A stretch of DNA of 26,422 nt from a virus (taxonomy: Duplodnaviria > Heunggongvirae > Uroviricota > Caudoviricetes). Position 1 is the stretch's first letter. Every line of letters starts with the position of its first letter. The translations under genes and the position numbers were made by a program. The stretch lies in IMG/VR virus record IMGVR_UViG_2541047936_000001. One strand, given 5' to 3'. Positions 10,056 through 17,600 of this stretch are shown here, in pieces. The notes below the pieces were generated by a model. The model was given only the letters and a program-made list of their open reading frames with translations, did no database searches and had not been told where the DNA came from.

Positions 10056-10478
10056 GTGGCAAAAGTTTTTACACAAGAAGAGCGGGAAAAAATTAAAGGG
10101 CAGGTTGTTGAACTCGTACGCCGGAGTGGGCGTGAGACGTTACGGCAACTGGAAGTCAAGACAGGTGCGACAAGATATCTGATGAGCGTTCTCGCAAGAG
10201 AGCTGGTTGCCAGCGGCGATGTATACAACTCTGGTTACGGGTTATTCCCGTCTGAACAGGCGCGTAAGGACTGGCAAAATGCCCGTAAAAAGCTCTCAAG
10301 GGCAAAGCTGAAGGAACCATCTGCGGTTGATCCGGACCTTATCTGGTCATTACCTGACGGAGAAATACGTCGCTACGACAGGCGTCAGAACATAATCTGT
10401 CGCGAGTGCCGGAAGAGTGAAGTTATGCAGCGCATACTAGCATTCTATCAGGGAAATGCTCGATATTTATTGAAGTGA
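10056..10478 (+). CDS. Hypothetical protein (140 aa), GTG start with AGGAGG Shine-Dalgarno
   Basis: ORF track; SD at 10046-10051. Confidence 0.5.
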   Translation: MAKVFTQEEREKIKGQVVELVRRSGRETLRQLEVKTGATRYLMSVLARELVASGDVYNSGYGLFPSEQARKDWQNARKKLSRAKLKEPSAVDPDLIWSLPDGEIRRYDRRQNIICRECRKSEVMQRILAFYQGNARYLLK

Positions 10479-10678
10479 TGAGATTAAAGTTTATTAGTTC
10501 AGATATTGATTGGCTCTTTTGTGGAGTAGGGTAGAGTTAGTGTGTTTGTCTGCTTGGTGCCAGCAGCGGATATGTTTAACAACAGAAAGCATTCAGCATG
10601 GTTAGTGGATTTGCAAAGTGGATTAGGATTTGAGAAACTTTGATGAAGTTGTAAAGCTTGTTTCTATAAAAATAGAAA

Positions 10679-10695
10679 TTTAACTAATAGTTAAA
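10679..10695. promoter_or_regulatory. Perfect 17-bp palindrome TTTAACTA-A-TAGTTAAA, 36 bp upstream of the 299-aa gene; candidate operator
   Basis: Read directly. Confidence 0.35.
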
Positions 10696-10730
10696 CACAC
10701 CTCCAGCTTCATTGAAAAGGATTATTAGCT

Positions 10731-11630
10731 ATGATTGATCCACTTATTAGAAACTTACAGAGTGATATTGCACTACTCCAGCTTTATATCGCGCAACGCA
10801 AACAGGCAGGCTTTCATGACATGGAAAGAATAATTGAGTCATTGACCATCTTTATGTTTCGCGCGCTGAAAATGGGTGAACTGGTAAACATGAATCAGAT
10901 TAAAGTTAATTTTCCCGCCATTGATTTAGCTGATAATAAAAACATGATAGCAGTTCAAGTTACTACGAATGCAAGTCCAGCAAAAATTAAAAAAACTATC
11001 GAATCTTTTGAGAAAATAAATGAAATAGGAGAGAGTCTGAAAGATAAATACTCTACTTTATATATTTTTGGTTTTTGTAAAGCCTCAAGATACCTAACTC
11101 CAAGTTATTGTAAAATAATCGACCCCAGCTATTTCGTGAATGAACTTTGCGATAAAGCAGATGAAGATATGGTCCAGGATATGATTGACGCCATTCGACG
11201 CCATCATGATTATACATCATTACATCCATGGAGTGATAAAGATTCACTCGAAATTATACTCAATATTATTAATCGCAATGCAATAAAACATCGGATGAGT
11301 TGCGAAGGCAGTCTGTCTGATATGCTCACTGGTTTAAAAGAAATTAATGAAGTAATTACAAAAGGAACAATTCAACGTAAGCAACGTTCAAAATCGATAT
11401 CTGACTTCAAAGATCAAAGCATGGTGAAATTTATGAGAGGTGTAATGGATGATTTGTCTGTTATTCAAGCCATAGTGAACAAATCTAAAGTTAACCAAGG
11501 TGATATGGTTTATATAAGCCATGAAGATATGATTAATATTGATAAATTAAAAGCTAAAATAGCAAGTGATTCATCAGAGATTGCAAGGCTAAATAATATT
11601 GATATAACACTAAATGTTGTTGATTTATAA
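10731..11630 (+). CDS. Cargo protein (299 aa), soluble; N-terminal ~125 aa resemble a SMEK-type N-terminal domain of defence-associated proteins; C-terminal ~170 aa unassigned
   Basis: ORF in ~33% GC DNA; motifs NFPAIDLADNKNMIAVQVT...KIKKTIESF; AAGGA Shine-Dalgarno. Confidence 0.7.
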   Translation: MIDPLIRNLQSDIALLQLYIAQRKQAGFHDMERIIESLTIFMFRALKMGELVNMNQIKVNFPAIDLADNKNMIAVQVTTNASPAKIKKTIESFEKINEIGESLKDKYSTLYIFGFCKASRYLTPSYCKIIDPSYFVNELCDKADEDMVQDMIDAIRRHHDYTSLHPWSDKDSLEIILNIINRNAIKHRMSCEGSLSDMLTGLKEINEVITKGTIQRKQRSKSISDFKDQSMVKFMRGVMDDLSVIQAIVNKSKVNQGDMVYISHEDMINIDKLKAKIASDSSEIARLNNIDITLNVVDL

Positions 11631-11944
11631 TTGTCGATTTAGCAAAACAGAGAATGCTTTGAAAGTTTCACCGAGAAATATTTATTGTGAACCTCCTTAT
11701 TGTTTATCGACTTTTACTCTCCGCTCATTGCAGTACTGTCGGAGAAGGCTACTATGTACAAGAAGCAGCTAACATAAGCGAGCATCACTATTGATATTAG
11801 GAAGAGTATATAAAAACTTCATGCTGAACCTTACAAAAGTAGGTAAACCGGCAATGGCCTAAGTGGCAGGGTCATGTTGATCCGGCACTGCCGAGCTAAT
11901 AATTAACAAGCAAATCACTCTTTCTAATAATTTGTTGAAATAAA

Positions 11945-12604
11945 CTAAATATGTATATGTTTACCAACAACCACATATGAACTACCTGCTTTGCTCCATG
12001 ATTTTATTATTTCTAAATTATTATCTGAGCATATTTTACTTACAGTATCCACATCTAATAAACCATAGTAGAAAGCATTGCGAGAGTTTTGGTATATATA
12101 CCCATGCAAATGTTTAATACCGCTCTCGTACCTCTTGAAATAAGAACTTTTGTATTGATTGACAATCAGTGCTTCACCATCACTCTTTAATAATTCTCTA
12201 ATCGCACTGAGGACTTTGTGAATTGTGGATTCACATGGAATTGCGGAAAGCACGTTTGCGCAAAGTATGAAATCATAATGATTTGTTATTTTATCTATAT
12301 TTTCATAAGAAACAATATTAGCATTCTTATAGTTATTTATCACGTAATCTGGAATCGTGGTTTGTACACCTCTGATAATTTGCACTCTTTCTAGTTGTCT
12401 TCTGGAATCTAAAAATGTCACAGTTTCAAATTTATTTACTAATTGTTCTGAATATCTAAGTTTTCCACATCCAAAATCAAGGGCATTGCCATTTTTATTA
12501 GTGCTTTCAATCTGTTTACAGAGATAGTTAGATGGCATAGTGTGCGGTTTCGCTGCATTTTCTGAACGTATGTTTATTCCATTTATTTTGTAATTCAAAA
12601 TCAA
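11945..12604 (-). CDS. Small class I SAM-dependent methyltransferase (TehB/TPMT-like fold); true start probably the second TTG (12598)
   Basis: Motif I ALDFGCGKL, acidic TFLD, YDFILCANVLSAIP, KSDGEALIV; no DPPY/NPPY DNA-MTase motif seen; GAGG 6 nt before second TTG. Confidence 0.75.
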   Translation of the reverse strand: MILNYKINGINIRSENAAKPHTMPSNYLCKQIESTNKNGNALDFGCGKLRYSEQLVNKFETVTFLDSRRQLERVQIIRGVQTTIPDYVINNYKNANIVSYENIDKITNHYDFILCANVLSAIPCESTIHKVLSAIRELLKSDGEALIVNQYKSSYFKRYESGIKHLHGYIYQNSRNAFYYGLLDVDTVSKICSDNNLEIIKSWSKAGSSYVVVGKHIHI

Positions 12605-12610
12605 CCTCGT

Positions 12611-13318
12611 TTAAAAAATATTGTTATTGTTAAAGAATTCTTTTATTTTGCTATCAGGTATTTGTCTTACTTGGCTTTCTGTTCTTGGTTTAACTGATGC
12701 TATGAAAATAAGGAAGTCAAATGCGACAAGAGAAATAATCCACAACCAAAGATTAATTAAAGAGCCAGTAACAGAGAATATATTTGTTAATTTGGCGATA
12801 CTTATTATTAAAATAGTAACAAATGCGATTACTGTATGTTCAAAGAAAACCCAAAAGTAATAAACTTTGTTCCAGAAAAGTTCAACGTAATGTTTGTCTT
12901 TTAACTCTTTAACTTCTGGGTAATACAGTTTACTCATTACCTTGTGAGATTCATCAGTAGTTAATTTTCTCGTAACGCCTGCAATTTTTGCTAATGGTTT
13001 AATAATTAAATGACTATCCCACATCTTCCTTATTCCAATAATTTTTGCTACATTATTATGTAGATCTAAAGCTCCACTAATTACTGACCAAAAAACTGAA
13101 GATGCAATTGGTAATATGCCAAAGGTTAATATCCATTTAATAAATTCCTCGTAGTCTTTAACGGGGGGGATATACTTGGCATTAATGCCAACCAATGGCA
13201 TGTAGCCATAAATGACTAATGATAGGTAAAATATAAATGTAGTAATAAAAGTCGCCTTATGGAGCATAGGCAACATTTCATTATAACTCTTTGGTGGTTC
13301 TAACATTTTACTCTCCAA
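12611..13318 (-). CDS. Integral membrane protein (235 aa, about four predicted TM helices), first gene of the operon with the methyltransferase
   Basis: Hydrophobic stretches TFITTFIFYLSLVIYGYMPLVGI, WILTFGILPIASSVFWSVISGAL, YYFWVFFEHTVIAFVTILIISIA, LINLWLWIISLVAFDFLIFIASV. Confidence 0.7.
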   Translation of the reverse strand: MESKMLEPPKSYNEMLPMLHKATFITTFIFYLSLVIYGYMPLVGINAKYIPPVKDYEEFIKWILTFGILPIASSVFWSVISGALDLHNNVAKIIGIRKMWDSHLIIKPLAKIAGVTRKLTTDESHKVMSKLYYPEVKELKDKHYVELFWNKVYYFWVFFEHTVIAFVTILIISIAKLTNIFSVTGSLINLWLWIISLVAFDFLIFIASVKPRTESQVRQIPDSKIKEFFNNNNIF

Positions 13319-13747
13319 ACACTCAAAAAAAAGCTAATCTTCTATAATAACGAAATTCAGCTGGCACAATTAAAGATTAATTGCCACCAATTTCTTGATT
13401 TTATAATTTTATCTAAATGTTTTTGATTAATCTAGTCCTAAAAGAAACCTACTGCATAAATATTTATGCTGATGACCCACTCCCTGTTCGTTAACACATA
13501 GCAACGTTAGTAATGCATCCTAAGTGATCAATATTTTTGCTAGCTTCATCTGCTCGCTCAAAGGGAACTATAATGTTGGCTTGCGTGTGACTTGGCATGT
13601 TTAAAGAAGTGCTGGTGGTGACTGGTTGCTGTTTTCCATTTCCACAGAACAAAATCATAGAAACTATACCCAGTAGTTGTATTGAATCACTGACGAGACA
13701 GCCTCATATTTATCAGGACTGGTGTACGTCCAATACAGGAGGTTGTG

Positions 13748-13837
13748 GTGCTGGTTCTCAAATGTGCGCTGGCTATTGCTGCTGTAATGGCAATTTATTG
13801 TCTTGCTGTTGTTCTTATGGATCACCTTTCTGATTGA
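13748..13837 (+). CDS. Candidate small hydrophobic peptide (29 aa: MLVLKCALAIAAVMAIYCLAVVLMDHLSD), GTG start with strong Shine-Dalgarno
   Basis: AGGAGG at 13737-13742, 5-nt spacer, GTG 13748; +1 frame relative to the 78-aa Cys-rich ORF. Confidence 0.35.
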   Translation: MLVLKCALAIAAVMAIYCLAVVLMDHLSD

Positions 13838-14048
13838 TTTCATATTGGCGAGGTAACGGTAGTTAAGTAGAATTGCTGCGGGTGCTTGAGGCTATCTGCC
13901 TCGGGCATCAACACCAAAGGCAGATAGAGAAAAGCCCCAGTTAACATTACGCGTCCGGCAAGACGCTTAACATTAATCTGAGGCCATATCTATGCTCTAC
14001 ACACGTAGGTTAGCCTCTTACGTGCCGAAAGGCAAGGAGAAGCAGGCT

Positions 14049-14204
14049 ATGAAGCAGCAAAAGGCGATGTTAATCGCCCTGATCGTCATCTGTTTAACCG
14101 TCATAGTGACGGCACTGGTAACGAGGAAAGACCTCTGCGAGGTACGAATCCGAACCGGCCAGACGGAGGTCGCTGTCTTCACAGCTTACGAATCTGAGGA
14201 GTAA
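14049..14204 (+). CDS. hokD: Hok-family type I toxin (51 aa), HokD/RelF-like
   Basis: MKQQKAMLIALIVICLTVIVTALVTRKDLCEVRIRTGQTEVAVFTAYESEE; AGGAGA Shine-Dalgarno at 14035-14040. Confidence 0.85.
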   Translation: MKQQKAMLIALIVICLTVIVTALVTRKDLCEVRIRTGQTEVAVFTAYESEE

Positions 14205-17350: not shown

Positions 17351-17426
17351 GGCCCTTTAGCTCAGTGGTGAGAGCGAGCGACTCATAATCGCCAGGCCGC
17401 TGGTTCAAATCCAGCAAGGGCCACCA
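17351..17426 (+). tRNA. tRNA with CAU anticodon (Ile2/ileZ-like, or Met)
   Basis: GGCCCTTTAGCTCAGTGGTGAGAGC...anticodon loop CUCAUAA...TTCAAATCC...CCA. Confidence 0.8.
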
Positions 17427-17433
17427 TCACATA

Positions 17434-17510
17434 CCGCCATTAGCTCATCGGGATAGAACGCCAGCCTTCGAAGCTGGTTTCGCGGGGTTCGAGTCTCCGA
17501 TGGCGGTCCA
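17434..17510 (+). tRNA. tRNA-Arg, anticodon UCG
   Basis: Cloverleaf with anticodon loop CUUCGAA; acceptor CCGCCAT/ATGGCGG; CCA end. Confidence 0.75.
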
Positions 17511-17523
17511 TTATCGGTATTCT

Positions 17524-17600
17524 GCGTTTTTAGCTCAGCCGGACAGAGCAATTGCCTTCTAAGCAATCGGTCACTGGTTCGAACCCAGTACAACGCACCA
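17524..17600 (+). tRNA. tRNA-Arg, anticodon UCU
   Basis: Cloverleaf with anticodon loop CUUCUAA; CCA end. Confidence 0.75.

Follow-up and report, generated by a model that had tools for sequence, protein, structure and literature searches.

In this study, a two-gene unit was analyzed in a 26,422-nucleotide stretch of viral DNA (IMG/VR record IMGVR_UViG_2541047936_000001; Caudoviricetes), which is called the window here. A YmfE-like inner-membrane protein of 231 amino acids is encoded on the minus strand at 12611..13306, and a YmfD-like class I S-adenosylmethionine (SAM)-dependent methyltransferase of 217 amino acids follows on the same strand at 11945..12598. The whole system occupies 1.4 kb. 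The two genes form a conserved unit, which is kept abutting across at least seven phyla and is occasionally fused into one chain. As the best explanation of the sequence evidence, which we hold with an even balance of confidence and doubt, the pair would be a mobile membrane-anchored methyltransferase complex for anti-phage defence or superinfection exclusion, carried as cargo of prophages and defence islands.

Identity of the Gene Pair

The membrane protein showed 60% identity to YmfE of Escherichia coli K-12 over 230 amino acids (E = 2e-108), and the methyltransferase showed 68% identity to K-12 YmfD over 212 amino acids (E = 4e-113). Judged by these alignments, the window pair is a homologue of ymfE (b1138) and ymfD (b1137) of the K-12 cryptic prophage e14. 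A sensitive DNA search found 69%-identical DNA, annotated as ymfE-ymfD in prophage e14, in 283 further E. coli genomes, K-12 included. The genes are already named, and the match to ymfE/ymfD names the family without explaining its function.

The e14 copy and the window copy share both protein families, the order from membrane gene to methyltransferase gene, the abutting arrangement, and a place in low-GC prophage accessory DNA beside a defence-type gene. The e14 copy lies at the att end of the prophage by icd and is divergent from lit, the gene of the classic T4-exclusion protease, whereas the window copy lies in the replication/nin slot of a Qin-like prophage next to a gene for a SMEK-domain (Mrr-like nuclease) protein.

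A sequence-only reading of this DNA had regarded the pairing as unusual for prophage cargo. This view was not borne out, for the pair recurs in Qin-like, lambdoid, and P2-like prophages and was found in 434 of 5426 complete E. coli genomes. Four prophage settings were observed in Enterobacterales. The pair lies in the Qin-like slot, beside lit at the end of e14, closely following gpD-ogr at the end of the P2-like prophages of Providencia and Enterobacter asburiae, and directly after lambda-type O/P replication genes in E. hormaechei. The neighbour of the prophage pairs was Lit in e14 and the SMEK protein in the window. In the P2-like prophage of Enterobacter asburiae, a 300-amino-acid protein encoded about 1.7 kb from the pair (L046, 10058-10960, minus strand) gave a weak match to a TIR effector (PADLOC, 2.9e-8).

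Linkage of the Two Genes and Fusions

More than 300 homologues of the methyltransferase were found, and close homologues of the membrane protein were few. In Neptuniibacter, Microbulbifer, and Colwellia, which have distant homologues of the methyltransferase, the gene upstream of the homologue encoded a relative of the membrane protein. The membrane-protein family was enlarged by profile search, and an exhaustive search gave 575 representatives among 1.84 billion proteins; the family is therefore rare and patchy.

Contigs of one genome per species were scanned with the methyltransferase profile, and adjacency was then checked by hmmsearch. The scan gave 24 loci in six phyla, from Gammaproteobacteria, Bacillota, Planctomycetota, Ignavibacteriae, Acidobacteriota, and Verrucomicrobiota. 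Each of the 22 evaluable loci had a YmfE-like gene next to the methyltransferase gene; of the remaining two, one lay where its contig ended, and the other held a truncated methyltransferase in a metagenome-assembled genome of very low coverage. The search from the membrane protein found the methyltransferase adjacent in 4 of 4 metagenomic or genomic places, including a Chloroflexota genome. The pair was also adjacent in 25 IMG/VR proviruses, all of them enterobacterial. The co-occurrence on which the sequence-only reading depended was thus observed well outside the window. The junction measured −28 to +14 nucleotides in all related loci (more than 30), and in two loci the gene order was inverted with the genes still abutting. 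Matches on plasmids were uninformative: one was to a Citrobacter megaplasmid, and the other two were to noisy records of e14 in excised, circular form.

A 459-amino-acid single chain joined the C-terminus of the membrane protein to the N-terminus of the methyltransferase. It was identical on four contigs from at least two samples, and its arrangement fits a cytoplasmic C-terminus of the membrane protein and a physical complex of the two partners. On one of these contigs the fusion gene (L075, 1259-2638) adjoins a GIY-YIG gene.

A second kind of fusion placed a TIR_2 domain at the N-terminus of an otherwise intact membrane protein (P0363, metagenomic, 400 amino acids). Two contigs (L010, 2893-3903; L011, 71-1081) carried a frameshifted 336-amino-acid copy of the TIR_2 fusion (P0207), with a YmfD homologue downstream (34% identity, E = 9e-40). 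TIR is typical of immune effectors or signalling proteins. The retention of the methyltransferase partner beside the TIR fusion suggests a sensing or controlling role for the two-protein core, with the output coming from the membrane protein, whether or not it carries TIR.

A housekeeping-type RNA methylase acting on tRNA or on N6-methyladenosine (m6A) in mRNA, with the membrane protein as a merely co-transcribed neighbour, was also considered and is very improbable. ymfD was one of four candidate mRNA m6A writers tested in K-12, and m6A-seq peaks fell from 602 to 32 in the ymfD knockout (PMC12096079). The same fall was seen in each of the four unrelated knockouts, and the authors' conclusion was that not one of these four genes confers mRNA m6A activity (PMC12096079). 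The strict linkage, the permuted order, and the fusion of the methyltransferase with the membrane protein argue for a joint function, and a rare, patchy, and mobile family does not suit a housekeeping enzyme.

Gene Starts, Junction, and Flanking DNA

The open reading frame of the membrane protein extends from the first TTG at 13318, giving 12611-13318. A GGAG Shine-Dalgarno sequence at 13313-13316 lies six nucleotides 5' of ATG 13306, and this ATG is the RefSeq start in identical genomes. The membrane gene is therefore likely to start at ATG 13306. Its stop codon, TAA, was found at 12611-12613, exactly where the sequence-only reading had put it.

The junction (12599..12613, minus strand) contains this TAA, a GAGG Shine-Dalgarno sequence at 12605-12608, and an alternative TTG at 12602-12604. 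From that upstream TTG the methyltransferase frame covers 11945-12604. The GAGG abuts TTG 12604 directly and lies 6 nucleotides before the second TTG at 12598. It is at this second TTG that the family profile begins and that the alignment of distant homologues sets in, and RefSeq uses the same start; because these agree, TTG 12598, 12 nucleotides after the membrane-gene stop, is most likely the start. The distance of 6–12 base pairs with GAGG and a TTG start, as read earlier from the letters, agreed with this layout, with the farther TTG favoured. The arrangement supports one operon, and the junction is of a type that suits translational coupling and is conserved in the related loci. The earlier claim of coupling is accordingly kept in its structural part, and the coupling itself is presented here as probable behaviour of such a junction.

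The DNA unit that moves with the pair covers about 11860-13472. Its 5' part (13307..13472, minus strand) is about 160 nucleotides long and was delimited by the end of DNA homology to the pair in other prophages at about 13472. It contains the GGAG, a TTATA −10-like element about 30 nucleotides 5' of the ATG, and a block, CTAGATTAATCAAAAACATTTAGATAAAATT, and is presumed to hold the pair's own promoter or operator. The upstream regions of eight prophages were aligned. In these copies the block CTAGATTAATCAAAAACATTTAGATAAAATT (13380-13440, minus strand), with a repeated TAGAT, was better conserved than its surroundings, and it may be an operator or a regulator-binding site. A simple sigma-70 scan gave no strong consensus promoter on the coding strand of the pair, and no convincing LexA box was seen upstream of the membrane gene. 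In e14, ymfE was listed with a "potential SOS box" (PMC6590174), and ymfD and ymfE were not SOS-induced in K-12 (PMC11002266). The conserved 3' flank (11860..11944, minus strand) ends at a homology boundary. A terminator scan gave no terminator-like hairpin after the methyltransferase gene.

Membrane Protein

The AlphaFold2 model of the membrane protein had a pLDDT of 93 and supported four transmembrane (TM) helices, at about residues 18-41, 58-80, 157-177, and 187-205; hydropathy agreed. Residues 81-156 form a conserved cytoplasmic helical domain. In 67 homologues, the mean number of Lys and Arg residues was 3.0 in the N-terminus, 1.1 in loop 1, 13.3 in the central domain, 0.4 in loop 3, and 4.7 in the tail. 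This distribution points to an N-in/C-in topology. The four helices proposed from the letters were thus recovered by all three approaches.

Five residues of the membrane protein were invariant (H83, R93, Y129, W152, and E156), and all invariant columns were present in the window protein. Y8, L12, D97, P104, M124, D137, H139, I216, and F225 were nearly invariant. The conserved residues were confined to the N-terminal helix, the central helical domain, and the C-terminal tail, which is the predicted cytoplasmic side, and the periplasmic loops were short and variable. A conserved His/Arg/Asp/His/Glu cluster lay on the same predicted side.

The membrane protein had no match in Pfam, NCBIfam, PHROG, or PADLOC, and no fold relative was found in the PDB or among viral proteins. 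According to the model, it has a confidently predicted fold for which no relative was found. This fold and the conserved cytoplasmic cluster make the protein a good target for structural and mechanistic work.

Methyltransferase

The methyltransferase showed the class I Rossmann fold, SAM-binding motif I (D/E-x-G-x-G), and the acidic residue after strand 2. The SAM-binding residues were invariant across the family. Its best family matches were the generic Methyltransf_12 and Methyltransf_23 of Pfam. Family-specific invariant blocks were ENAAKP at the N-terminus, KLRY after motif I, NQ..SSYF, and SYYG, and these blocks probably form a substrate or partner site. By resemblance, the enzyme would be of the small-molecule, protein, or tRNA type. 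Searches of PDB sequences with both family profiles gave marginal matches at most.

The enzyme is not a DNA methylase of a restriction-modification system, as had been proposed from the lack of DPPY and NPPY. The protein contains no PP dipeptide and hence no (D/N/S)PP(Y/F/W) motif. No DNA-methylase Pfam family matched at E ≤ 1, 217 amino acids leave no space for a target-recognition domain, and the nuclease neighbour in the window is not conserved as a partner. In PADLOC the methyltransferase gave just a 19-bit partial match to MADS mad2. Restriction-modification, BREX, and MADS resemble the pair in having a methyltransferase amid defence genes, but their enzymes are DNA N6-adenine, N4-cytosine, or C5-cytosine methylases that mark self DNA, and the motifs of such enzymes are missing here.

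The motifs ALDFGCGKL and YDFILCANVLSAIP, earlier called TehB/TPMT-like, are present in the protein. The likeness to TehB is weak. TehB orthology was rejected, with 29 bits for NCBIfam NF008992 against a cut-off of 303 and 28 bits for NF008405 against 218. The Pfam TehB domain passed marginally (24.4 bits; cut-off 20.4), and the generic methyltransferase families scored higher.

The tehAB operon has a similar logic, a membrane protein encoded with a small class I SAM methyltransferase. With the Pfam match, this likeness could point to TehA/TehB-like detoxification or resistance, in which tellurite, selenite, a thiol, or another toxic nucleophile would be methylated. The low equivalog scores speak against it. 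The partner differs as well: TehA is a 10-TM channel of the TehA/SLAC1 type, whereas the 4-TM partner of the pair has a novel predicted fold that is not transporter-like and belongs to no Pfam family. The pair is found in defence islands and on mobile elements and not at loci for metals or stress. Detoxification is accordingly an improbable function of the pair.

Genomic Neighbourhoods and Possible Function

The neighbourhoods were compared in 22 non-redundant loci outside enterobacterial prophages, a sample to be read without a genome-wide background. A recognised defence system lay within about 3 kb in 7 of the 22 diverse loci. These neighbours, which directly adjoin the pair, were Olokun in Microbulbifer (L004); Hachiman in Pseudomonas sp. 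PICF141 and in Amphritea (L018 and L020); Lamassu in P. simiae (L024); Gabija in Eubacterium multiforme (L026); a type II restriction-modification system in a metagenome (L012); and a PDC-S37/Hhe-like helicase in Paenibacillus (L035). Resolvases, serine recombinases, tyrosine integrases, transposases, and an ImmA/IrrE-type regulator were also frequent neighbours. Within prophages, the place of the pair beside Lit or the SMEK protein, and the presence of PD-T7-1 in the slot of the window pair in another strain, are further signs of an association with defence.

The pair resembles the two-gene defence modules with TM effectors (TM effectors of CBASS, Thoeris, and Pycsar; Rst_2TM_1TM_TIR). It is a compact operon in prophage hotspots and defence islands, its small multi-TM protein is a plausible effector, and a TIR-fused variant exists. 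It differs from these modules in the partner, which is a SAM methyltransferase instead of a cyclase, a TIR signal generator, or a nuclease, and no signalling nucleotide is implied.

Several points weigh against a defence role. The link would be guilt by association from a small sample (7/22), and many loci have housekeeping genes or genes of no recognised function as neighbours. Neither protein was found in the 50,697 sequenced phage genomes of INPHARED. No system of PADLOC-DB v2.0.0 (2023) was matched by the pair, the membrane protein having no match there, and no catalogued defence system or publication was found to cover it, although a recent description could be missed with a catalogue from 2023. 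K-12 holds ymfED, yet it is the standard permissive host for most coliphages. Because K-12 is broadly phage-permissive with its e14 copy, protection, if any, is probably narrow, or the K-12 copy is silenced. The e14 ymfE-ymfD locus was listed among "promoter islands" in a section on H-NS binding (PMC3661553), and the e14 copy may be poorly expressed and H-NS-associated. The ymfD knockout of the Keio collection, with ymfE intact, had no growth defect (PMC12096079), and a ymfD deletion lowered early biofilm formation (PMC3105296). In the searchable literature, in which subscription journals are thinly covered and recent work could be missed, no functional study of E. coli ymfD/ymfE and no phage-protection experiment was found; many matches were to the unrelated Bacillus subtilis ymfD/ymfE or to chance strings.

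The biofilm effect would also fit modification of the envelope or of lipids, that is, lysogenic conversion. The membrane protein would then present a lipid or a lipid-linked intermediate to the methyltransferase at the cytoplasmic face, its methylation would change the properties of the cell surface or the membrane, and any effect on phages would be an indirect block of adsorption or injection. The pair lies in att-proximal or accessory prophage slots, which are common places of conversion genes, and the membrane protein's polar His/Asp/His/Glu cluster, close to where membrane and cytosol meet, could be a binding site for a head group or a metal. The pair spans Gram-negative, Gram-positive, Planctomycetota, and Chloroflexota genomes, however, and the envelopes of these bacteria are very different. 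Immunity is a better fit for the TIR fusion and for the position of the pair next to Hachiman, Gabija, Lamassu, and Olokun. Envelope modification is thus unlikely, though the strongest of the alternatives to defence.

An addiction module of the toxin-antitoxin kind would need a membrane-protein toxin restrained by the methyltransferase, and it would mainly stabilise the mobile element. The unit is small, mobile, and AT-rich, adjoins hok/sok in the window, has the membrane gene first with its partner coupled, and shows strict co-occurrence, all of which would suit such a module. The normal growth of the Keio ymfD deletion with an intact ymfE (PMC12096079) argues the other way, although H-NS silencing of ymfE could mask toxicity (PMC3661553). 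A ymfD point mutant was neutral (PMC6828540), and a simple binding antitoxin does not need invariant catalytic SAM-binding residues. The chance of an addiction module is low, similar to that of detoxification.

Proposed Mechanism

Under the preferred defence reading, both proteins would be made from one transcript by coupled translation. We infer that, most likely, the two form a stoichiometric complex with the methyltransferase docked on the membrane protein's cytoplasmic face. In the first step, the pair, which has its own conserved upstream region and in the window lies antisense to the prophage's replication/nin operon, could be expressed in the lysogen. In the second step, the methyltransferase, which appears catalytically competent from its motifs and fold, would have a substrate other than DNA at the membrane. 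This might be a small molecule, a lipid, or a residue within the conserved platform of the membrane protein itself. In the third step, infection might alter the methylation or the complex; the membrane protein would then act as the effector, disturb the membrane, and stop the phage, and in some relatives the fused TIR domain would add NAD+ depletion. Support falls from the first step to the third.

The trigger and the substrate in this scheme are speculative. The preferred concrete form would be a membrane effector under the control of methylation, set off when infection interferes with the enzyme or the SAM supply. CheR and the chemoreceptors offer a mechanistic analogy only, with a methyltransferase that acts on the cytoplasmic helical domain of a membrane protein. 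CheR has no sequence relationship to the pair; the Pfam CheR match was insignificant and was seen in a relative only.

A bolder proposal is put forward tentatively, as possible but doubtful. YmfE/YmfD might be an unrecognised class of anti-phage immunity that reaches from e14 to Bacillota and Chloroflexota, with a non-DNA methyltransferase and a 4-TM protein of novel fold acting as a membrane sensor-effector. It could take the form of a methylation-held switch, fired when infection perturbs SAM or the enzyme, for example by way of SAM lyases or inhibitors from the phage. Membrane damage would be the output, together with NAD+ depletion in the TIR-fused relatives.

If the pair is a defence system, a function would be assigned to two long-standing "y-genes" of K-12 beside the classic Lit exclusion gene, and non-DNA methylation at the membrane would be a new enzyme chemistry in bacterial immunity. 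If it is not, the strict pairing across phyla still points to a membrane-associated methylation reaction of a kind not yet known. The pair is small and is present in K-12 and the Keio collection, which makes it easy to test.

Prophage Setting and Adjoining Genes

The prophage that makes up the window is lambdoid, of the Qin/DicB type, and is integrated in E. coli beside mtfA and tRNA-Ser. The pair lies between the replication and nin regions, in a low-GC cargo island (10480..13472) with 31–35% GC against about 48% in the flanks. The island is placed between the DUF977 gene (10056-10478), which is at the end of the replication module, and sok/hokD (13880-14204). The island was present at 99% identity or more in 146 complete E. 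coli genomes, and the annotation of the identical region in strain C3 was drawn on here. Backbone homology with other prophages ends at about 10460-10570, just past DUF977.

In other Qin-like prophages (L040-L043), the DUF977-hokD slot (10480-13880) contained a 484-amino-acid protein of no recognised function, QueH, several small open reading frames, or PD-T7-1 with a 314-amino-acid protein likewise without assigned function. PD-T7-1, a validated defence gene, was the cargo of strain EC21Z-097. Because the cargo differs between prophages, the slot is a variable accessory site.

The SMEK-domain protein of 299 amino acids is encoded on the plus strand at 10731..11630, in the same low-GC island. 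Its gene is convergent with the pair and 313 nucleotides away. The protein matched Pfam SMEK_N (2e-22), NCBIfam SMEK_N (1e-30), and PADLOC Aga_REase-PNTD (1e-20), and in the PDB it matched the Mrr domain of the Mrr-APAZ partner of a prokaryotic Argonaute (7e-8). The N-terminal domain resembles the Mrr nuclease domain of short-Argonaute partners (PMC10810196), and the C-terminal region of about 180 amino acids matched no family.

The proximity of this predicted nuclease could suggest a trio similar to restriction-modification, in which the SMEK/Mrr-like protein (10731-11630) restricts and the methyltransferase shields the cell's own DNA. Modified DNA is the usual target of Mrr-type nucleases, and these have no need of a cognate methylase. 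In one enterobacterial sub-lineage the three genes do occur as a group, at nucleotide identities as low as about 82%. SMEK was absent beside the pair in e14, in P2-like prophages, in other lambdoid prophages, and at every non-enterobacterial locus. The methyltransferase also lacks DNA-methylase motif IV, a target-recognition domain, and any DNA-methylase Pfam match. The trio is largely refuted and keeps the smallest probability of all the alternatives. SMEK is regarded as a co-travelling defence-type neighbour and not as a component of the pair, and it probably acts as a single-gene defence nuclease in its own right.

Within the AT-rich island, the stretch that separates the convergent SMEK and methyltransferase genes contains a short patch rich in GC (…CCGGCAATGGCCTAAGTGGCAGGGTCATGTTGATCCGGCACTGCCGAGC…) at 11840-11900. 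The patch coincides with the left boundary of the mobile unit at about 11860, which suggests that the island is a composite of two separately acquired modules.

Directly to the right of the island lies a hok/sok type I toxin-antitoxin locus (13880-14204, plus strand), with sok RNA at 13880-14054 (Rfam RF01794, 114 bits) and hokD at about 14049-14204. The 570-nucleotide gap between the membrane gene and sok contains an unannotated open reading frame of 78 amino acids (13597-13833, plus strand). It has a Cys/Gly-rich C-terminus (…GGCGAGSQMCAGYCCCNGNLLSCCCSYGSPF) and no Pfam match, and it may be spurious.

The left end of the prophage (1-3200 of the window) carries mtfA (1-837), tRNA-Ser (892-981), and an integrase open reading frame (1034-1864). 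The latter is apparently truncated by an IS3-family element (orfA, 1932-2258; orfB, 2255-3145); strain C3 (L001) lacks this element in a region that otherwise matches exactly. A tRNA cluster (17351-17600, plus strand) lies downstream of the Q antiterminator gene and consists of a tRNA with a CAT anticodon followed by two tRNA-Arg (TCG and TCT). The CAT-anticodon tRNA was assigned as Met by ARAGORN and as Ile by RefSeq.

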